From Antedon mediterranea (Eukaryota; Animalia; Echinodermata), in NCBI RefSeq assembly GCF_964355755.1, contig NC_092675.1:20432912-20496911 (forward strand): a stretch of 64,000 nucleotides of DNA. Direction: 5' to 3'. The stretch's first letter is position 1, and each line of letters starts with the position of its first letter. Below are positions 47,101 through 63,928 of the stretch, in pieces. The position numbers were made by a program, and so were the translations under genes. The notes beneath the pieces are model-generated. The model made no database searches. It was not told the DNA's origin and worked only from the letters and a program-made list of their open reading frames with translations.

Positions 47101-50100
47101 CGTAAAGTCCCTGAACCCTGGATTATATTACAAAATGTAATTCATACCCGGTGGAACACCTTCAGTGATCCAATCATCTTGTAACCTCATCTTATGTTCA
47201 GTTTCATAAGGACCAACAAGCAGACCAGTCCGCTCTTGTCTTAGGTAGTAGGAGCCATCCAGATCTCGGATTACTGGCAGCTCTTTCTTCAATGCTTTAA
47301 CCTCTGGAATCGTAGAGGTTACTACGTATTGATGATGAATGGGAACTAGCGGAATATCTACACCAGCCATCTTTCCAATTTCAGTTCCCCAAAAACCTAC
47401 AAAACATTTATACTCAATTAAAAATTCACAGTATTTTACACATTTTTTAGAACTGGTTTTTACAACTTTTAAATTCATAACAGTTCGTTCATTCATTCAT
47501 CAGTGGAAAATTACTTCCATTTATTGTCATTTGCATATAAAATATACACAAAAACAGGTAAATAAAAAACTAACAAAATCAATTACAAAGTGTTGTATCA
47601 CTCTCTTACGGTATACTGAAAAGCATTCAGTGCCCGAACAGCAAGTGGGATAAAAGCTGTTATGAAACCTATTTGTACGAGAGAGTAAGTAAGAGGGTAA
47701 GTTTTAATAACCTGTAGCATTGATGACCCGCTTGGCGTTGATGGTACCATGTTCTGTCTCAACATCCCATCCTCCATCTGCCCGCTGAGTAGTAGCCGTC
47801 ACTGGACAATGTTGATACAAGTCCGCTCCATACTTTCTAGCTCCAATTGCTAAAGCTTGTGTCAGTGAATAAGGATCAATATGACCATCATTGGGATTGA
47901 AAAGACCCAATAAAACCTAAAAAAAGACAAAGATATCCATTATTTGAGATCAATCAAAGAAATGATATATTTTTTTTAGGAATTAAAAAATTCAAAAGGG
48001 GATATCAAATGTTATATTACATCGATATAAAGGCAATATCTGTTAGCTAAAATGATTCTGTAGTCCGTAGGCCCAGAGTTACTCTACTCCATCTTACCTT
48101 AGTGAAGTAATTAAAAATCTATGATTACTTTATATAAAAATATTCATCAAGTACTTAACAAATGAATTCGCAGCACATTTTGTACAAGAGTCATTTCTAT
48201 CAATTCTTCATCTGATAGATATAAACCTATTCGAAGTCACCATTTTAGAGCAAAGTGTACAATGGGCCAGATGGCATCCATTAAGACTCATGCAATTGTT
48301 GTCTTTGCATATTTTTAAACGAAAAAGTTTCCTCTCAGGGGGTTACAAATAATGTGCATGCCACCCACCACTCTTTACCTTTAGGTATTGCCATGACAAC
48401 ACACATTCATTGTACAAGGACAAATCTTCAAACATTTTCGAAAGATAACACAACATATGGCATGTCAAAAATCATATCTTTAAATCACAGTTGTTTTGTA
48501 AGAATACATTTTGATTTCTTAGACACACCATACATTTAACACCGGGCACTACAGTATTATTTATTCAAAAAACTTACAGTTTACAGGTGGGTGTTAGACC
48601 TTACAATAATGGGTGGGAAACATTAGCTCACTTCCACCCAACACAATTACATCCATGAGTACCTTGTCCATATTTAGCAGTGGATGTATTTCTGGGATTT
48701 CCTCTGGTGTTAGGAGCCATTGCGGTGCCTTCTGCCAAGCCTGTCTTTGCATCTGGTAGTGAAACTCATCACAACGCTCTGGAGTGGAGGCTATCCTTAA
48801 ACTTCCAGGTGTGTGGAACCCCACCTCCTGTCATCAAAATTAGAAGAAATAAAAGTTGTTAAAATGTATAAGAATAGAAACCTTAATATAGTAGATTTGC
48901 ATTGCAACATTTGTAGCTATTGTGAATTTAAAATGCATGCCCTTGGGTGAAAGTTCACCAATACAAAAATTCTTAGCAGGAGCAATGATGCATGGTGACA
49001 TGACTGGTTGGCGAATGCATGGGGTATTAAATGCATGTTTAAACCTTCAACCACATTTGTATTGACAATGCTCGGTGACCTTTGCTGAAAAGCAATTTGG
49101 AATCACTTTAAATTGCACTAAGTTACATAGACCTGATTCTGCGCAATACATGATCTGTTGTTAAACTGTAAAGCTCTGTCTACACTATCTAACTAGTTTG
49201 ACAAATATGGTAGTTATAAGTTTTGGTAGTGATATGACATCATCATGTCCAAATATGGGCACATCACATTTTTTTGTCACATAAAGTTTGATAGTGTAGA
49301 CAGAGCCTAAACCATATAATCTGAATCCTTAAGAAATTAAATTAGGGATGAGAATACTATCTTATGTGCATTGATCTAATATTGGGTCATACTGGGTCAT
49401 ACTGTACAATGTCAGACCAATAAGAATAGCCCTCTTTATTCAAACAATTTAAAAGTGAAATTGTTCTGATTATGGGAGTATCTTTCCATACGTGTTTGAT
49501 GCAAAAATGACCGGTGTGGTAATGTTTAGTGCTTCACAACATTAGGCTCTATATAAATCCAGGATATTATTATTATTATTATTACTATTGATAACTAAAT
49601 CATACCTGTCCTGTCTCTTCTTGTAATTCTGAGAACAACCGTATACTGTAATGGTGAATATTTTTCAAATTAATACCTGGATGATAGTATGTTGCAAGAC
49701 CAGCCTAGAAAAAAAAAACATGCTATCTGAAAGGCATATACAGTAATTAAAATAAACTAGATAATAAATTCAATGACATAAATCTCTTAACCACCATGAA
49801 CAAGATTGGTAAAATTATGATGACAGTACATGTCTATATGTCTTGCATTTTTGTGAGGGTCCCTCATTTTCAGCTTCCTCTGGACTGACCACCCTCGTAC
49901 AACATTGTTGAAAAAAATAAAATAAATACAAAACTAGAACTTCTGGATTTTTAATAAACACTGTAGGTAGGCATTAAATAGAACAGACAATGTTCATTAC
50001 ATTGCAAGATTTGAAAGCATTTGCATTTTGTTATGGCTTATCATAGATCTTACAGCATGCCAGGTTGAACCTGCAGTGAGCTCAGTCTTCTCCAAGAGCA

Positions 50101-51030
50101 CTACATCCTTCATGCCTGCTTTAGCCAGATGATATGCAGTGCTGACTCCAACACAACCTCCTCCTATCACAACAACCTCAGCTGTGTCTTTTAAGCGTTT
50201 GTTTAGAGGCTTTGTTGTTTTCTTATCACTACTGCAAAGATCAAGACATCATAGAAAAGGTAAGAAACTAACATTAGTCATTGTAAATCATAAAAAGTAT
50301 TAATTTATTAATTAATATTAGCTTATCATGGCCATGTTATGTCTATGGTATTTTAGTCATTTTATTTTTTATGTATAACAACAAGTGTGAACAGAGTACT
50401 CTCAGGATTGTAGCTCTCCAACACTCTAAACCACAAACAAAAAGTAACTGTACATATAATATACACATACAGTAACATATAACCACAAACGCACAGTGAG
50501 AATAGTATTTTTATGCTATCAAAAAGTACTTAATTTAATGAAATGATTTTTTCATTTCATTTCATTTATTTCGTCTCACATACTTATAACAAAAAATAAC
50601 AAACAATAGAGAGACAGGATTCCCAAAAGCGAACTAAATCAAACTATCAAGTGGGTCTCCAAAGCAAAACATAATCATCCGACAATAAAATACAAAATTA
50701 CAACATTAAAAACAACGTGAAGATTAAAAAATGGGGTGTAATGGGGTGTAGGAAAACACTGCTGTTGTACCATATCTTACACAGGGGTGTCATATCCTAA
50801 TTGAAAAGAAGGATATGTCTAATACAGTAAATAGGGAGGGACCGACCGGTGTTAGGATGGTCAATTCCTTAAACTACTACTTAAGATGACCTGATGTATG
50901 GGCTTTGGTTTACTCTCAATTACCTTTGTGTTGTGTACTTGACTGATTGAGTAGAAGACGTTAAAGGCCAAATGCGATGACTTTGACCTAATCTTGAAAG
51001 ACTTCTTACTCGTGACATAGTCCCTGCCAT
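41133..51030 (-). CDS. DMGDH: Mitochondrial dimethylglycine dehydrogenase
   Basis: Exons 51030-50924 (Arg/Ser-rich transit peptide [21 protein letters not shown]), 50231-50054 ([11 protein letters not shown] motif, [10 protein letters not shown]), 49704-49606, 48827-48663, 47916-47712, 47396-47148, 46405-46207, 45703-45429, 44675-44458, 44367-44237, 43656-43439, 43311-43154, 42262-42203, 41774-41640, 41345-41133. [42 protein letters not shown] and VVGNTTSG fit DMGDH better than SARDH. Confidence 0.93.
41395..41586. mobile_element. Short derivative of the element at 10888-11521
   Basis: Shared GGGATTTATAGCGGGCC...AAAAAAGTTATCGCAATAGGACCATATAGT...AAAAACGTAGG. Confidence 0.75.
41798..41962. mobile_element. 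MITE family A copy
   Basis: Same TIRs. Confidence 0.85.
42580..43103. mobile_element. TTAA-flanked non-autonomous transposon related to family C
   Basis: TTAAAGATGTATTGTCCCTT ... AAGGGACAATACATCTTTAA. Confidence 0.8.
45950..46150 (+). mobile_element. tRNA-derived SINE family 2
   Basis: A-box-like GTGGCTTGGTGG and B-box GGGTTCAAGT; inverted homolog at ~55000-55165. Confidence 0.65.
49171..49308. mobile_element. MITE family A copy
   Basis: Same TIRs. Confidence 0.85.
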
Positions 51031-51638: not shown

Positions 51639-51983
51639 TGTATATGTTATGCGCGATTTGCCCAATTTAAAATTGCGCGAAGAATTTATGTTGTGTATTA
51701 TACACATGTTATCTTCGCATTTATTATGTTTCATTTTGAGTTATTAGTTTCGAATAAATTATTATTGTTAACCGATCGTCGACGTTTAGCACGCATTCTG
51801 GTAGAATTCTGCTGCGCAATTTGACAATTTTACAAATTGTGCAGCGAAATTTGAAATTGCGCAAGGATTTTCTTGCGCAATTTGAAATTGCGCAAGAATT
51901 CTTTGCGCAATTTCAAATTGCGCAAGGAATTTTTTGCGCAACCTCAAATTACGCAAATCGTTCAAATCGCGCATAACATATAC
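51639..51983. mobile_element. TIR element containing an array of TTGCGCAA palindromes
   Basis: Termini TGTATATGTTATGCGCGATTTG / CAAATCGCGCATAACATATACA; six TTGCGCAA copies at 15-16 bp spacing (51857-51941). Confidence 0.75.
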
Positions 51984-52963: not shown

Positions 52964-55900
52964 ATGGCACCGTCAATGAGTAAACTTTTGTATAGCCCAA
53001 CGTCGGCTGTAGCAATATCAAGTGCTTTTAGCATATATTACTTAGCGAAAAGATTGGATAATTCGAAGGACAACAAAGGGAGGCGGAAACGAACTGAAAG
53101 GTAACACTTTTATTTAGGCTAGGCCTAGGCCTAGCTAGGCTAGCCCTTAAGTAGGCTAGATAGCCTAGGCCTAGATGCCTATCTTGCACGCCGCCAGGTA
53201 GACAGGTTGTTACCTGGCGTGACCAACTTAACTGTCATGCCGGCGGCGGCTGGGGATTCCCTGGCATTAACCGACGTGATTCTAGACTGTGCAGTAGGCC
53301 TAGCTAGGCTTATGCGGCTGCCTACAATATAAATTTTTCTTTCGATTTAAAAATTGATTATTTTTTAGTACTTAACATTAAAAGAATTTGTTTTGTTAAC
53401 CTATTCTGTTTTGTTGATTGATGCCGTGCCTTGTTTATGATTTTTTAATGTTACCTGGAAATTGAATAAAATAAAATAAAATAAAAAAAATTATTTGCAA
53501 TGTCATTGGCAATTGCTTGTTGTGTTGTAGGCCTATGGTGCCTAGTCTAAAATAGTAAAATTAGGCCTAGCTAGGCCTATAGCTTTACCTATTGTTGATA
53601 TTATTATTTAATTTTATGATTGTGTTAAAAAATTTAACAAAATAATATGGATATTTTTTACAGGCTCTTTAATCTGCAGGTACATTGATTCATAATATAA
53701 ATAATTACGTTTAAATATGCATGCATATCTATTTTTAATAAATAAGTATTTAATTAAGTACCAGCAACATGGAGTGGTATTATTGGTAATACTATTGTAT
53801 AAGCAAGTAACTGCACCTCACACAATTTTACTAAATGAAACTCTTTTTTTTTTTATTTCAGTATATCAGAAATCCCTGTGGTGCTTCAGGTATAAATCAT
53901 TACTGTTTTTTGGGTAACAATAACATTTTAACAAATAATATGACATAATATAGTAAATCAGACCTGCCAACCCATGGGTCATAAATGAAATTGCTAAAAA
54001 AAGTTCCCAGATTGAATATTACCAATGACGAAAAAAAAAACAACTATAACTCTAACTATTTGCTATCTTAAATCTGCCCGGCCGTTAGTGGCAACATTCA
54101 ATTAAAAAATATGTTAAATTTTTTTTGTGACGGAAGGGACATAAATATACCTGACATTCTTTTGACCCATTTTCCATTTAGAAAATTTGTTTGTTTTTTT
54201 TAGGGAGGAAAATCAAAAGCACAATCAAAAGAAAAGGCTGCTGTAGATTCTGTATTTTTCAGGTAAGACTTTTAGCAAAAAGTATTATCCAAAATCTACA
54301 CAAATTGTTGTTTTCTGTATAATTGACAGTGAATAACATATTCATAAAATAGAATAAACACTGTAAGCATTCTATTGTATGCCTGCAAAAACTTACAATG
54401 TTAAGAATCAATTAACACATTAGTATTAAGTACCTGTTCCGTTCTATTCAAGATTCAAGAAATTTTATTTGTCCATAAAAATGGAAATTCACTTTGCTTG
54501 GTAGATTAAAACAACAATATTGCAACAATTTAAAAACGTGCAGTATTATAACAGATTAAAAATACAAGATAAAAAGTTAAAAATACTGTTAAAAATGTAA
54601 AACTATTAAAAATTGCATTAACGTCTTACATTAGAATTAAAAATTGCATTAACGTCTTACATTAGAATTAAAAATATGAATGCTATTTACAACGAAGGAT
54701 TTTCTAGTTCTACAAAGATTTGCTCTTGGAGGTCGTAGCCTAATGCCTGATCTATTTAAGTTATAACAATGTAACGGATGAGTGGGGTCTTTCATAATAT
54801 TGTTTACTTTTTTTTTAGAATACTCTTTTCATATATAAATGAACAAGGCGTAAGATCAGCTTTAATAATACGTTGTGCAATTTTACGTGGTCTCTCAATA
54901 TTTTTCTTATCATTATCTTTCTATGCTATTATCTGAAGTAATACTAGTTCCTATGTATTGATTTCAATTTTTTTTTTACATTTTTTTTTAACCATATTTT
55001 AATGAGGGTAATCCATCCATCCATTGCTGATCATTAGGGACCCTCAGAGGTTCACAAGACAAACATATACAAGATGCTCTACATAAACAAAGTCTTAGGG
55101 AGTGGAGTTGTAATTTTTTCCTTAGAAAAAAATCCTGACATGTGACAGGACTTGAACCCAGGACCCATAAATTTGAATTTCATTTCAAATAAACATTTAT
55201 TTTCTTTTACATCATATAAAATAGAAAACAAGATATACTGGTATAATATGTAACAGCAGCTCTCTTTTATAAATATGTTTTTTTTCATTTTGTAGACGAT
55301 TATTTTCAATTATTAAGATATTAGTACCAAGGTTAAAATGCAAAGAAGTAAGTATTTTCCAAGTTTGTTTATTTGGTAATACATACTGTATATATATACA
55401 GCTTATTTTGATATGACGTATATAACATCACATGGGTATTGTTTTACTTTCATATGCATATGAAAGTCTGTTCCAACGTAACATTGAGGTGCCGTGCAAA
55501 CATTTGAACTAACTGCGGGCTGGTAGCATGAAATCCGAAAATAACCTTAAAACATTAATATTTAATATCCAAATGTTGAATTAACCACATGTCACTTTTA
55601 AGTTGCTTTAACTTTTTAAAACTAATTTATGTTCATATTATATATACAGTCTGTGTTCTACATGTTTTATTTGGAACATTCTGTTTAATTACTACTCTGT
55701 TGATACTCCTTATAATTTATGTAGTGGCAGTAAAAAATAATTGGTAGGTTATTTTAATATCCTGTTAGATTATAGATTATTCACATAGGGCTTTTATTGG
55801 TCAAGTGGTTTAAATTGTTAAATTGTATTTTACAAAAGATTATGGCGTGCAGGATTAAGAATTTCTTTTTAAATCATACATACTTGTCCTTGACTTTTGT

Positions 55901-58900
55901 TTTTCATAGAAAACTATAATGTATTGTATTAGATGGACTTTAGTAGTAGATTCTTATTTATAGATTTGGGTTTTTTTTTTAGAAATGTATTAAAATATTA
56001 TTATTTTGAAAAGGTGTGCTACAAATTACACTCCTCAACATACTGTATGTGCTGTAGGTATGCTGTTTGTATCTTGGTGTGTAGAAGCCTACAAAATTGA
56101 ATTGTAAATGTAAATGGCACACATTTATGTGTGTGATTGCACTCGCATGCCTCAATCTCTTACGGGTGTATAGATGTGCTAAGAGAGGCCTGAGGTCCGA
56201 GATAGATCACACTAGATTGGATCACTGTCTCGAAAAGCGGACCTCTGGAAATAATACTTTCTCAAAATTTGGACCGGTCATGTGGAACGAACTCCCGTCT
56301 GTGATCCGGGAACAAACCACGGTTCTAAAATTTAAAAAAGCCCTCAAAACACATCTATTTCCTAAGAAGTGACTCATTGTTGGGTCTGCTGATGTAAAGC
56401 GCTTTTATCATTTTATACTAATTTGGAAAAGCGCTATATAAATAAAATAAGAATAATAATAATAATATTAAATGAAATGTTGTTACATAATAATAATAAT
56501 AATTCCTGTATACAAATCATAAAACTGTTATTTTTACTTTTTTTTTTATTTAAACAAAAATGTTATTCTGTCAAGGGGTTCCAAAAGAAGCCAAAAATCT
56601 TCTAAACAAGGATTAAGCGTGTCACTCAAATTTAATGGTTACAATTTTTGTTTTCAGACATTTTATTTACTAATAGTGGCTGCTTCCTTGGCTGCAAGAA
56701 CATATTGTGATGTTTGGATGATTCAAAATGGAACTGCCATAGAAAGGTACATTTTGGGTTTTGTAATTAGCAATACTATAATTAAAAATTAACAAACAAT
56801 ACTTACTTCTTGGTCTAGACTCGGATATCCAAGTGCAAAGAGCTCTATCCCAATCTATGAGAAAAGTCAAGAGACCAACAGGAGGCCCCAAACTCGCCCC
56901 CAGAATCTGGCTATGAAAAAAAAAATAAATAAGTCTATGTGCACACCCTGGGCAATACTCACTCTGATTGGAGGAGTTAAGTGCGGTATGTCATAAGACG
57001 TACTGTACAGTGTTCATAATGACTTACTATTCACAATACATATTCATTTAATTATTTATGCTCTTGTAAATGAAACAATGCATAATTTTTTGCTAAATAA
57101 GAATTTAAATCATCTTTTATACTTTTTCTTTTAGCTCTATAATTGGTCGAGATGTTGGCTTATTCAAGAAATATCTTTTTAATTTCATTTGTGCCATGCC
57201 AGCTGTAAGTATTCTGAAAGGTGTCAGACTTCACCCATTGTTTATTATCGAACATATGTAGGTAGGCCTAGGCCTAGTCAATTTGGTATTGGATATCCCA
57301 GATGGTGTACGCTCAAAGATTTTAATATTATTATTATTACCTTATACAGCGACCTCTATATAATTGTTAATTATTATAGCACACCCTCTATTGTTTATCC
57401 AAACATTTTTTTTTTTCAACTTGGGTCCTCTGGTATGTGTAGTATCGAATCAAATTGGCCATTAATTTTAATTGTTCATTCATTCTTTTTTCAGATATCA
57501 CTGATAAACAACTTGCTAAAAGTAAGTCTAAATTTTAATTTGCAATTACTTGTAGAAACAATAATAATTAATTATATAGAAGATTGGACATATTGTTATT
57601 GCTATTGCCTCTTTTTAATACCTTTTTTAAACAATAATTATTTTGTTTTTTTAGTATGGATTGAATGAAGTAAAGTTATTATTCAGAACAAGGCTGACAT
57701 CATTCCTCTATGATCAATACCTCAGGTAATTTTAATAACACATACATAAGTTATATTATATTTAATAATCAAACTTTTATGTACTCTTGTGATGTAGAAG
57801 CGTTAGGCCTGGCATATTCCTAGTCTGCGTTATAACTAAGAATCACTTGGGTGTTTTTAATTGTTAGTTTGACATCATTTAAGTGGTTATTTGAGATTTG
57901 TTCCATTTCTTCTGCTCAGAAACTTATTCAAATTCTCTCAGCAGAAACAACCTCTTGCTGCTGTTTTATTCATTTAATTCCCTCTGCATTGGCTTGCTAT
58001 TATATAATTTTATTACATAAACAAACATATCATATTTCCTAATGCCGTAATTATTTACAGAGGGTTCACATACTACAAAATGAGCAACCTTGATAATCGT
58101 ATAGCAAATGCTGATCAGCTATTAACGCAAGACGTGGAGAAATTCTGCAACAGTGTAGCTGATTTGTACTCAAACTTAAGCAAGGTAAATATCTTTATAA
58201 TATACAACTCATCTGTTTGTATTTTAAGATTATGTTTAACATCAATAAATATTTAAATTAACACAAGCTCAGAATAAATTGTTAAAATGTAGGTAATTTA
58301 GAAAGGATATCAATAAATATTTAGACATTAAAGTAGTTTGACAAAAAAGTGTGATGTGCCTAAATATGGTAGTGATATGCTAAAAAATGATATAACATCA
58401 TCATGTCCATTATGGGCACATCAAATTTGTTTGTCACATAACATTTGATAATGTAAACAGAGCTTAAGATTTGTTATCGGGAGTGTATCCAGCACTAAAG
58501 CCCTGTCTACACTATCAAATTTATGTGACCAAAAAATGTGATGTGCCCATTTATGGACATGAGGATGTCATATCACTACCATATTTGGGCACATCACACG
58601 TTTTCAATCTATTTTGACAGTGTAGACAGAGCTTAAGAGTGCGTACTCCTCCATTTTGACAGTTTAAATGAAATTATGAACTACTTTTTGATACTATTTT
58701 TGACAGACTTTTGTATGTTAGCGCTGCCCCATTAAATAAATCTTGGCCATATTATAAAATTCAAAATGCTGTCCTTTGGAAATCACAATTTTGATATTTG
58801 GCAAACCATAATTTGGAATTCTATACTTATTTCTTCTTCAGCCCTTACTTGACATCTTGATCTACACCCGTGTATTGGCATCATCTATAGGTGCTCAAGG

Positions 58901-61900
58901 GCCAGCTTTCATGTTGCTATACTTAGCTATATCTGGCCTAGTACTTACAAGGTATGTTGTATTCATAATACTTGCCGATTCATATTTTTAATTATCTTTA
59001 ATCAACAACTCGTAGATGTCAATTAAATCAGTTATGTTACTCGTTGTCATTTGTGGTCAGATTCTGCTTAGCAGAAAATATTTGTTGCCATTAATTTTAC
59101 TGCAGTCTGTTATCAAAGTCAAAATAACCTAAGCCACACCTGACCTAAGCAAGTATTTTTCCGGAAATATTGGATGATGTTAGAGTCCATTTTATAATCT
59201 AAATAGAACTGGTTTGATAGATAAAATGGCTTTGTTTTTCATTTAAGCACATTTTAACTATCCTGACTTAAGCAAAAATATGTATAAGGTCCAGCCCTGA
59301 TGGGGACTAATTATGCATACAGTTTTAAAATGAAGCAATCCACTTTTATAAAAAAAAATGTCTTCACTGCAAATATATAATATCGCATTCAATTATGATT
59401 TCATTTTTGACTGATAGACTACGTAGGCCTGTTGGCAGGATGACTGTACAGGAACAACAGTTTGAAGGAGAGTTTCGATTTGTCAATTCTCGCTTGATTA
59501 CAAACAGTGAAGAAATTGCCTTCTATCAAGGTAACAAGTGTGAAAGGAGGACTATTTATCACACGTTCAAGAAATTGGTATGATTGTGTTGTAGCTCTTT
59601 AAATACTCTATGTGGTATAATTCTGGTTGAAAGCCTTTTAAACCAAGAAATATGGAATCATTTTGTTACATTAATTATATACATTAGCCCCATGACATTT
59701 GCAATAAGTAACACACCCTCCTTGTGTTTAGAAGATATCCGAGTAGAACAAGCAACATGCAGTTAAAAAAGGTTGTCTTTTTATTGGATAACAATGTATC
59801 TTCTGATGTTTTGCCTTGCCATACTAAATTAGAATCTTCAGAACCAAACCTATTTTGTATAAGGTTTTTCTGTACAATATAACTATTAAATTACCTTGCA
59901 GTTGATAGAACTTAAAATGCTAAATTGTATCCATGAAATATTTTTTGGAGATATTTCATTTATGTCAGAACTATAACATGTCAAAACATTTCTTTAATTT
60001 TTCACCATTTTTTTTAGGTTGATCATTTACATCAGTTTATTTTCTTCCGCTTCTCAATGGGTTTTATTGACAACATAATTGCAAAATGTAAGTTAAAATT
60101 GCAATTTAAGTTGATGTTTACTTAAGATGTCCCTGTGACCTGGTTCAGAGTCTCATTCTATCAATCCATCATCAAATATTGATTATTTTTCTTTGGTGTT
60201 GTCTGCTTATTAATATCTGTGAGAACTTAGTACACTTTTTTTTCTTTTATCACTGTCATATTTCTTTATTTGCTACTGACCATTTGAACTGACAAGTAGC
60301 ATGGTATACTATTATAATCTTTTTAATTGTGTTTATTGACTTTCTTTTGATAGATATTGCAACTGTTGTTGGGTATCTTGTTGTTAGTAGACCATTCCTA
60401 AACCTACAGCACAAACCATTCTTGCATCTTAATCACTCAGAAATCATGGAGGTAAGTTGTAGATTATCAATACATTAGAAAAATGTACATAAGATTTATA
60501 TCATAAATATAATGACTAGTGTGTAAGGTGCATTAAGGGTAGGTGAAAATAGGGGTGCCCTAAAGGAAGAGTTCTACTGTAGTACTACCAGTCATATTAA
60601 ATGGTACAGTATGTTACATTCACCTAAAAGTTATTTTGTTCAGAATAAAAGAAATGTTTTTTGAGGATAAATGTATTGTAAATAGAGCAGAAATCTTATA
60701 CAAAAATGATACTACTTAAAACCTTATTTTACCCATTAAATCTTATTATTTATATTATTTTAATATTGTTAATTATACTTCTCCTTGAAAACTTACATAA
60801 CTTTGATAATTTTTTTAATGTATTTTTTATTTATTATGTAACAATGTATTTTGTTTTTAATGACAATTTTAGTCAAACCTCCTTTTAAAAAAAATATCTA
60901 TTATATAGTATAAGTGACTTGTTTAATTTACTGCAATTAAAACTAGATGTTATTACACTATATATAACTGGATGTAATAATACATTGTCTTTAATATTTA
61001 TTGTTATTTAAATTTCTAAATCTGTTCAATAAATAATCGTCTATTACTTTATTTAGACATACTACAGATCAGGTTACATGCTTTTTAGAATGGCCATGTC
61101 AATAGGTCGTTTAGTACTTGCTGGCCGAGAGGCCATAAGGCTGGCCGGGTAAGTTGTCAGCCACGCAATGCCTATCCTTATGTATACTTTAGTGCATCGT
61201 TCTAACATTTGTGTTTGTGTATTTCATGTTTATCGGCCTAAAGGGCTGGCTGTATGTTTTAGCATGACTGTAGCTATTGCGTTTACTGCAGTATATTTGT
61301 TATTTACTCCAGATCTATCTATCTATCTATTTGATACTTGGTCTATGAGTCTTTATTTTTTTGTTCGGGAGTTTAAGAGAACTAAATATATACTAAATAT
61401 TTGTATGTAATTAACCTTGCAACAATTTGTATACAAAAACTATAATTTTTGTTAGATTAACAATATTGTGCAGTAGATATTAAACTGCAATAAATTTACT
61501 GTTAACAAATTACTGCAGTAATTACAATCACTACAGATAAATTTAGCAATTTTTAGATCATACATAACTAATTACAATGAATTATAACAACATCATTTCA
61601 TTTTGTCATCAACTAGGAATATTATCAGGCGGGGAGAATGTTGTTACGTATGGCTCAGGCAGTCGGGAGAATTGTTCTCGCTGGACGAGACATGACACGA
61701 TTATCAGGGTGAGTGTTTAATTGGAGTTTTAGTGACAAAATTGTGCTGTTCCCGACTGCCAAAGTGAATACTTTAAATGATTTGAGAATTGTATGAAAAC
61801 ACTAACATATTTACACTAAACACTACTGTTTTGTTTGCTTTTGTAATGTACTGTATTGTAATTTAGTGCTTTTAATATTGCTTTATTCAATTGTAATGTG

Positions 61901-63928
61901 ACATGTTGACATGTATTGCGAAAAGTGACATTGTGACATTATCTGCTTGCTAGCAATCCTACCTTTTCAGCACACTAAAGTTTGTTGTTATTTTAAAGCT
62001 CTGTCTACACTCTCAAAAAAATTTGATGTGCCCAAATATGGTAGTGATATGCCCATATATGGTAGTGATATGCTCAAATATGGTAGTGATATGCTCAAAT
62101 ATGTTAGTGATATGCCCAAATATGGTAGTGATATGCTCAAATATGGTAGTGATATGCTCAAATATGGTAGTGATATGCCCAAATATGTTAGTGATATGCC
62201 CAAATATGATAGTAATATGACATCATCATGTCCATATATGAGTACATCACATTTTTTTTGTCACATAAAGTTTGATATTGTAGACATAGCTTAACACAGT
62301 ATACAATGGTATGGTGTATAATGTTGGTAAATTGATTATTCTGCTAATGTTGTTCATTTTTTTATCAACTGCTCAAAAATAGTGAACATCCTTTTAAAGT
62401 GAGCTATGACATTGTTTAAGGAACCAGGCTATTGACTGTTCAAGTCATGCTTGCAGAGCAAATAGTCTTAATTTTTGCTGTCTTTAACTTCCTTCATGGT
62501 CAAAGTTGACGATATATGAACAGGGTTCAAATATGTGGTATTTTTATTGATTATTTTTGTCTCCAATACAAAAGGTTTACAGCTAGGGTTACAGAACTAA
62601 TTACTGTACTGAAAGACTTGAACACTGGACGCTATGAACGTACCATGGTATCAGCTACGGGAAAAGGTATTACAATGTTTATGCAAAGTTAAGCTGTGTT
62701 TTGTATAGCAATGATGATAATGCAGGGGTGCCGAAAACAGCTTGAATGAGGGCTGAGTGTATTAAAACTAGTTCTTGTCTGGCATGTGGCTTGATAAGTC
62801 TACTTAATTCCACGATCATGCATTATCTGAGCTTAATTAGCATATATTATTCTAGTGTTACTTAGTATAGCTTAATACAGTACTTTTTTTCTTTTATAAT
62901 TTACAAAACAATTTCATAGATGATAAAGTAAGTTAGTAAAAGTAAAGTATAGATAAAACATACAGTACATAATAGCATAAATTTATATAAATTTCTGTTT
63001 TTCTTGTGCCCTCTTCAATAGCCTAATGTTGTATTTTTCTTCCTTTAGATTCTGATAGTGAAGAGGACAGTGAACCTTTAGTACCAGGAAGTGGAGAAGT
63101 TATATTTAAAGATGATGTTATAAGGTAATAGAGAGAATATGGTAGTATGAGCAGGTGTGGCTAAATTGCTACATTGAAATGTTACATTTTAGTGTTAGGT
63201 TGGATAGTAAGTAATGTAATCAGCAATGCAGAAAGCATGGTATATACATTTACTAATTTTTACTTCCAAATGTAAAAAAATCCTGAATCGTCCATTTTTA
63301 TAATATTATACGGACACCTTCAAATCAATAATCTTCTTCCAGAATTCAACATTTGAAATTGTAAATTTAACACAGTGGAACCGTAATTACGTAGCCATTA
63401 TATCGGCAAGGGTTCGGGGCTCACTCGCTCCATGGTTCTGGTGGTAGAACAAGTCTTCTCGGATAAGGACTATAAACCGTAGGTCCAGTGTACACATCAA
63501 GCTCATGTGCACTTTAAAGAACCTAGTACATCTTTCGAGACGAGTAGGGGGTTACCCCGGTGTACTAGTACATCACAGCCACTGATCATCAACTGGGCCC
63601 TCTGGGAGACCAGACCAGTCTTTGACTGAAGAGGTCGCACAGTATAAATATAAATAAATAAATATTTAAAAACAGACATGGGATACATTATTTAATATTT
63701 TAAAAGCAACATATAAGAACATCAAAAATACTATAAACATTACTTATTCAAAGTTGTCTATTTTTGATAATTTTCATTCTTTATAGATTTGATAATGTAC
63801 CTCTTGTGACGCCAAATGGTGATGTACTTGTTAAGGGCATGACCTTTGAGGTCACTCGTGGCATGAATGTACTTGTATGTGGACCAAATGGGTGTGGAAA
63901 GAGCTCACTCTTCAGAATTCTAGGAGAG
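52964..63928 (+). CDS. ABCD3: Peroxisomal ABC half-transporter ABCD3/PMP70; 3' end outside window
   Basis: Exons 52964-53100, 53862-53889, 54204-54262, 55296-55347, 56658-56746, 57135-57204, 57495-57521, 57655-57725, 58061-58184, 58842-58951, 59418-59577, 60018-60087, 60354-60451, [61057-61148 or 61617-61708], 62575-62666, 63049-63124, 63787-63928. Motifs [38 protein letters not shown]-like [10 protein letters not shown], Walker [13 protein letters not shown]. Confidence 0.95.
54447..54930 (-). mobile_element. LINE 3' remnant (Rex1/Babar-like)
   Basis: Minus-strand translation [44 protein letters not shown] resembles Rex/Babar C-termini; (CTTGAAT)n-type tail. Confidence 0.6.
55000..55165 (-). 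mobile_element. SINE family 2 copy
   Basis: Reverse complement of 45995-46150. Confidence 0.65.
56200..56470 (+). mobile_element. L2/CR1-type LINE 3' end
   Basis: [34 protein letters not shown] followed by AAAGCGCT...AGCGCTATATAAAT and an (AAT)n tail. Confidence 0.75.
58330..58635. mobile_element. Two adjacent MITE family A copies (58330-58466 partial, 58498-58635)
   Basis: Family A TIRs and internal motifs, opposite orientations. Confidence 0.8.
61057..61148 (+). CDS. ABCD3: ABCD3 alternative exon A (divergent TM6-region copy)
   Basis: TTTAG|92 nt|GTAAGT, phase 0/2, open frame [31 protein letters not shown]. Confidence 0.85.
61617..61708 (+). CDS. ABCD3: ABCD3 alternative exon B (canonical-like TM6-region copy)
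   Basis: CTAG|92 nt|GTGAGT, phase 0/2, open frame [31 protein letters not shown]. Confidence 0.9.
61996..62293. mobile_element. MITE family A copy with internal 21-bp unit expanded to ~9 copies
   Basis: Family A TIRs enclosing (GATATGCYCAAATATGKTAGT)x9. Confidence 0.9.
63410..63665 (+). mobile_element. SINE family 3 (Meta-domain-like core)
   Basis: TCGGATAAGGACTATAAACCGTAGGTCC...GCACTTTAAAGAACC core and (TAAA)n tail; decayed relative at ~13885-14060. Confidence 0.55.

Follow-up and report, generated by a model that had tools for sequence, protein, structure and literature searches.

Human ABCD3 is spliced through a mutually exclusive pair of 70-nt exons (PMC4878813, Goldstein 2016; PMC8373072 supplement, Martinez-Gomez 2021), the alternative exon being enriched in heart and skeletal muscle (PMC4878813; PMC8373072). 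The pair covers human residues 114 to 136 approximately, is dated to Vertebrata and is the sole ABCD3 event in the catalogue of the second study (PMC8373072 supplement). Convergent exon duplication is documented more widely in transporters, with Drosophila mrp (eight exons), C. elegans mrp-1 and human ABCC9 as examples (PMC9741552); neither the text nor the supplement of that paper mentions ABCD3.

We analysed a 64,000-nt stretch of DNA from the crinoid Antedon mediterranea (hereafter the window), in which the ABCD3 gene carries two exons, A and B, encoding alternative versions of transmembrane helix 6 (TM6). Both vertebrate variants of the 70-nt exon match a single location in the window (57133-57216), and the ten vertebrate isoform pairs compared differ only at residues 112-137 (10/10), none of them in TM6. 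Since the vertebrate pairs differ only at the 70-nt exon, of which the window has one copy, the TM6 cluster stems from a different event in ABCD3. A sequence-only reading of this DNA had known of no exclusive splicing in ABCD3. For the gene this does not hold, as the human pair is published (PMC4878813; PMC8373072 supplement), but that pair concerns a different, 70-nt exon, and no published account of the echinoderm TM6 cluster was found in the open-licence PMC and bioRxiv literature. The locus appears to belong to a phylum-wide cluster of mutually exclusive exons, of a well-known kind, apparently undescribed and situated in the substrate-binding helix. We consider it highly probable that A and B are mutually exclusive, that they derive from an old echinoderm cluster of three exon types (A, B and C) and that they yield transporters differing solely in TM6.

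Two alternative TM6 exons in one ABCD3 gene

The gene was rebuilt from its start codon to the end of the window, all 16 constitutive exons having GT-AG boundaries (Table 1). Its product contains the Pfam domains ABC_membrane_2 and one ABC_tran, and its closest relatives are ABCD3 proteins. Among solved structures, the exon A and B peptides match only ABCD3, at human residues 356-386; many named ligand contacts lie there, and the segment is TM6, as first identified.

Table 1 Features of the ABCD3 locus, numbered from the first nucleotide of the window
Feature	Position	Strand	Details
ABCD3 (PMP70) gene, 5' part	52964-63928	+	16 constitutive coding exons plus A/B; continues past the window end
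70-nt exon equivalent to the exon duplicated in vertebrate ABCD3	57135-57204	+	single copy in the window
Constitutive exon upstream of A/B	60354-60451	+	98 nt; encodes TM5 plus the lumenal loop; single copy in the window
ABCD3 exon A, alternative TM6	61057-61148	+	92 nt; phase 0 in, 2 out; isoform residues 366-396; NCBI isoform X2 XP_071951923.1
A-B intron	61149-61616	+	468 nt
26-nt inverted repeat in the A-B intron	61268-61293 / 61511-61536	+	core pairs predicted at 0.91-1.0
ABCD3 exon B, alternative TM6	61617-61708	+	92 nt; of the two, the nearer to the vertebrate sequence; NCBI isoform X1 XP_071951922.1
Candidate RNA stem over the B donor	61658-61668 (exon B) / 61750-61760 (intron)	+	perfect 11 bp, G+C-rich
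Constitutive exon downstream of A/B	62575-62666	+	92 nt

Both exons were re-read in the sequence, and the coordinates, lengths, splice sites and phases assigned to them from the letters alone were correct. Each has an AG acceptor, and the donors are GTAAGT (A) and GTGAGT (B). The exons share 17/30 amino acids and 49/92 nucleotides; codon positions 1, 2 and 3 are identical in 15, 24 and 8 of the 30 codons, respectively, and the 200-nt flanks of A and B have nothing in common beyond short chance matches. The saturated third codon positions, together with the unrelated flanks, show that the duplication is old and is neither an assembly copy nor a haplotype copy. Both exons show purifying selection, at the protein level only: between two crinoids, A is conserved at 28/31 and B at 30/31 residues, and the core residues are invariant. 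The A/B duplication is old and under protein-level constraint.

Splicing was then reconstructed in silico. Inclusion of A alone gave an open frame identical over 499/499 residues to Antedon mediterranea isoform X2 (P0003), and inclusion of B alone an open frame identical over 499/499 residues to isoform X1 (P0126). With both exons the frame ends at a stop at 61693, and with neither at a stop at 62584, so that one-of-two inclusion alone is productive, as had been argued from the exon length. Isoforms X1 and X2 differ at 13 residues, all inside 366-395; the resulting transporters would differ solely in the substrate-binding helix TM6. As expected of mutually exclusive exons, A and B adjoin each other inside the gene, are homologous, agree in length and phase and have valid splice sites; either alone leaves the same protein region open, while both or neither do not. 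They are best described as tandem-duplicated ABCD3 exons, of which the open reading frame admits just one. The A and B isoforms already exist as automatic NCBI models, and both exons are present in the isoform models, likewise automatic, of Antedon and nine other species; NCBI alternative isoform models of this kind generally require transcript support.

An exon-profile search of all six frames of the window returned A (E 1e-18) and B (E 1e-22) only, the next match having an E-value of 0.066. Within the window, a whole-protein profile revealed no convincing second copy of any other ABCD3 exon, and a third (type C) exon was not found there by HMM or permissive tblastn searches, which a heavily decayed remnant might escape. 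Two degenerate-pattern scans of metagenome contigs yielded 0 loci with related exons.

Two further features lie upstream of ABCD3. An exon of an FAD-dependent oxidoreductase (49997-50248, minus strand; Pfam DAO, E 1e-13), which presumably resembles dimethylglycine dehydrogenase, is oriented head-to-head with respect to ABCD3 (start codon at 52964). A unit containing TTGCGCAA recurs at 51820-51975 in short tandem and inverted copies.

Choice between the two exons

Inclusion of both exons or of neither brings early stops with more exons downstream. This arrangement is the usual trigger of nonsense-mediated decay, by which double-inclusion and skip products would be removed. The same frame property is shown by 60% of human mutually exclusive clusters (PMC5740500).

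Two routes to exclusivity were rejected. Steric exclusion, for which the published criterion is a donor-to-branch-point distance under 50 nt (PMC5740500), is unlikely in view of the 468-nt A-B intron, the candidate branch point lying 46 nt before B (a branch-point-like CTAAT; the AG-free zone before exon B spans 58 nt). U2/U12 incompatibility is excluded by the donors of A and B, both of which are GT and U1-like. Exclusivity would most likely arise from competition between splice sites, possibly aided by an RNA stem over the B donor.

The candidate stem at this donor had a pairing probability of 0.94-1.0 in four folding windows and was the longest found in 36 exon-flank comparisons. Its length was reached in 3/1000 shuffles, or about 0.1 after correction, and 4/10 control stretches contained stronger duplexes. 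We regard the stem as a lead and not as a finding. Local folds after each donor were no more stable than those of shuffled sequences (z -0.07 and +1.25). The inverted repeat within the A-B intron stops roughly 30 nt short of the candidate branch point for exon B. No docker common to both exons was seen at the A/B locus, where one B-donor stem and one intronic inverted repeat were observed.

The intron after exon B also holds a small element (61996-62292) with inverted ends around approximately 10 copies of a 21-nt unit. Similar pieces occur at about 49170-49290 and 58330-58635, and their presence elsewhere in the window suggests that the element likely belongs to a MITE-like family.

Exon types and TM6 residues across echinoderms

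The comparison took in isoform records from 13 named echinoderm species, and in 10 of the 13 the isoforms have substitutions confined to the same 31-residue segment. The records show A and B in Antedon, four starfish and Amphiura, B and C in three urchins, and all three types in the crinoid Anneissia, with C in its isoform X2 (P0125); the remaining three species (two Diadema and Apostichopus) have a single type. Type A, recognised by Tyr at position 7, is accordingly found in two crinoids, four starfish and one brittle star. Type B occurs in these seven A-bearing species, three urchins and Diadema setosum, and type C in Anneissia, three urchins, Diadema antillarum, the sea cucumber Apostichopus and record P0070; the absence of C is established for the Antedon window only, and a type not seen in another species may lack annotation there. 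One type each was seen in one hemichordate, in eight lancelet records and in molluscan, cnidarian, placozoan and sponge records. These data support the original proposal that the TM6 exon was duplicated long ago and kept by selection as mutually exclusive copies, and the cluster is older and wider than proposed, with three types across the echinoderm classes.

A second small splice variation was observed in the linker after TM6, with one residue fewer in four starfish and eight fewer in Amphiura (P0139, P0145, P0137 and others).

In structures of human ABCD3 bound to phytanoyl-CoA, the exon segment is TM6 and includes the contacts G372, I374 and V375; alanine mutants showed R373, R379 and R383 to be needed for substrate-stimulated ATPase activity (PMC11369193). 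Y357, R366, S368, Q369 and L371 have been named as further ligand contacts (PMC12772208). We compared these positions in 25 echinoderm rows (7 A, 11 B and 7 C). Y357, G372, R373, R379 and R383 are invariant in 25/25 rows and R366 is present in 24/25, while positions 368, 369, 371, 374 and 375 are variable. All types retain the residues that grip CoA, with variation falling on the acyl groove and cavity wall, and A has in addition a Tyr in place of Arg362. The A/B changes at acyl-groove positions in Antedon are conservative (I/V, L/I). The non-conservative swaps first noted in exon A fared unequally across species: R>Y is found in 7/7 A exons, whereas L>F occurs in 1/7 and Q>M in 2/7, and MT>AI (381-382) is restricted to crinoids.

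Position 362 is Arg in 18/18 B and C rows and in 320/320 exon-bearing ABCD3s outside the echinoderm list, a set of 30 distinct peptides, mostly from fish, from which 24/385 stored proteins without the pattern were excluded; in A rows it is Tyr (7/7). An exon A query against 1.84 billion representatives gave 11 matches, one to an unrelated repeat protein and ten to ABCD3 fragments, all with Arg362. The residue is absent from the main text of both structure papers (PMC11369193, PMC12772208), and no paper on it was found in the open-licence literature. Lying 4, 7 and 11 residues before R366, Q369 and R373, position 362 would, by helical spacing, point into the cavity at the lumenal end, one turn from the adenine-binding Y357. 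An AlphaFold model of isoform A (pLDDT 62, pTM 0.48; helix 371-413) was left out of the contact analysis owing to its low confidence.

Exon A also diverges faster. Its 28/31 identity between the two crinoids compares with 593/637 for the rest of the protein, and between classes A retains 19-21/31 and B 28-29/31 residues, the rest of the membrane domain being 79-83% identical. This is compatible with either specialisation or weaker constraint.

A and B transporters would likely differ in their handling of fatty-acid cargo. We put at about even the chance that the effect would be to tune substrate preference or turnover by tissue or stage, with no new activity. As ABCD3 is a half-transporter, A and B isoforms could in principle pair, giving A/B heterodimers from one gene.

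A competing explanation, which we rate as possible but would not favour, is that the exons are real alternatives whose isoforms are near-equivalent, or of which A has low activity, both being kept by split expression or as a means of turning down import, and not for any new specificity. Differences between A and B at ligand contacts are indeed mostly conservative, types are absent from the records of several lineages (C is not in the window, and sea cucumber records show C only), and A both evolves faster and has lost a positive charge that is invariant elsewhere. Near-equivalence is harder to reconcile with Tyr362 in every A row of three classes, where all other ABCD3s and all B and C rows have Arg, or with the retention in A of every CoA residue proven by mutagenesis.

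Age of the cluster and comparison with vertebrate ABCD3

A tree was built from 30 exon peptides over 31 columns, comprising 20 echinoderm peptides, after removal of duplicates inside each type, and 10 outgroups. Every type fell on one side of a branch (support A 92/86, B 86/69 and C 87/92, none starred), a clustering that is partly circular because the types were assigned from those same residues. In AU tests, a constraint to five class-wise clades was rejected (p=0.0009), as was one to crinoid and eleutherozoan clades (p=0.039); holding each of three subphyla together was borderline (p=0.055). Of the five single-lineage constraints, that making A and B of Antedon sisters was rejected (p=0.011) and the other four gave p 0.06-0.23. 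Mean identity of the same type between classes is 26.1/31 for B, 25.9/31 for C and 21.3/31 for A, and that of different types inside one class is 20.3-22.5/31. Placement of B with the vertebrate exon, which would imply a duplication of deuterostome age (p=0.55), and the groupings A+B, B+C and A+C were equally undecided. The vertebrate TM6 exon has Gln359 and Leu365 as in type B; lancelet and hemichordate retain outgroup-like residues.

The echinoderm classes split 542-479 My ago (PMC5831733). As the exons group by type and class-wise duplications are rejected, the A/B/C cluster is likely about 480 My old. A and B would likely belong to a three-exon, mutually exclusive cluster dating from near the base of the echinoderms, the simplest history being one in which the echinoderm ancestor carried all three exons and losses followed. 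Independent duplications in crinoids, asterozoans and echinozoans, with similar types arising by convergence, are improbable. The alignment is short, the three-subphylum constraint is borderline and transporters commonly show convergent exon duplication (PMC9741552), yet such a history would require the Arg>Tyr change to have recurred at an invariant site and the B and C signatures to have arisen more than once, and it conflicts both with the AU rejections of the class-wise and the crinoid-versus-eleutherozoan constraints and with the 26/31 identity of B and C exons across classes, compared with 20-22/31 between types inside one class. It is very improbable that exon A of Antedon has fallen out of use and is decaying, or that it arose as an assembly artefact, which had been doubted from the outset: the frame is intact, the donor is strong (8/9 U1 matches), third positions are saturated, flanks are unrelated, 28/31 residues are conserved in the second crinoid and the isoform is annotated.

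The authors of the human ABCD3 structure do not settle what residues determine the preference for fatty-acyl chains, suggesting the hydrophobic groove (PMC11369193). The echinoderm isoforms differ solely in the helix that bears most of the named contacts, a difference probably kept for some 480 My, and with isoforms differing only in TM6 the question of preference becomes testable by a one-exon swap. A bolder reading, which we hold to be rather unlikely, is that ABCD3 is a convergent hotspot, vertebrates and echinoderms having duplicated different membrane-domain exons, and that the Arg362Tyr TM6 cassette switches acyl-CoA preference by tissue and allows A/B dimers. Were the hotspot reading true, the cluster would be a natural experiment on the determinants of ABCD substrate specificity. 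No functional study of the muscle-enriched human ABCD3 isoform was found in the open-licence literature, and a second independent exon duplication in ABCD3 suggests that this isoform merits one.

The Antedon pair resembles the vertebrate ABCD3 pair in several ways: the gene is the same, the homologous exons stand in tandem and encode part of the membrane domain, and they are equally long, with a length that is not a multiple of three. It differs in involving another exon, the Antedon counterpart of the vertebrate one being single. With the mutually exclusive exons of ABCC proteins it shares an ABC transporter setting, interchangeable homologous exons and separate evolution in several phyla. 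Unlike those full transporters, however, ABCD3 is a half-transporter with peroxisomal acyl-CoA cargo.
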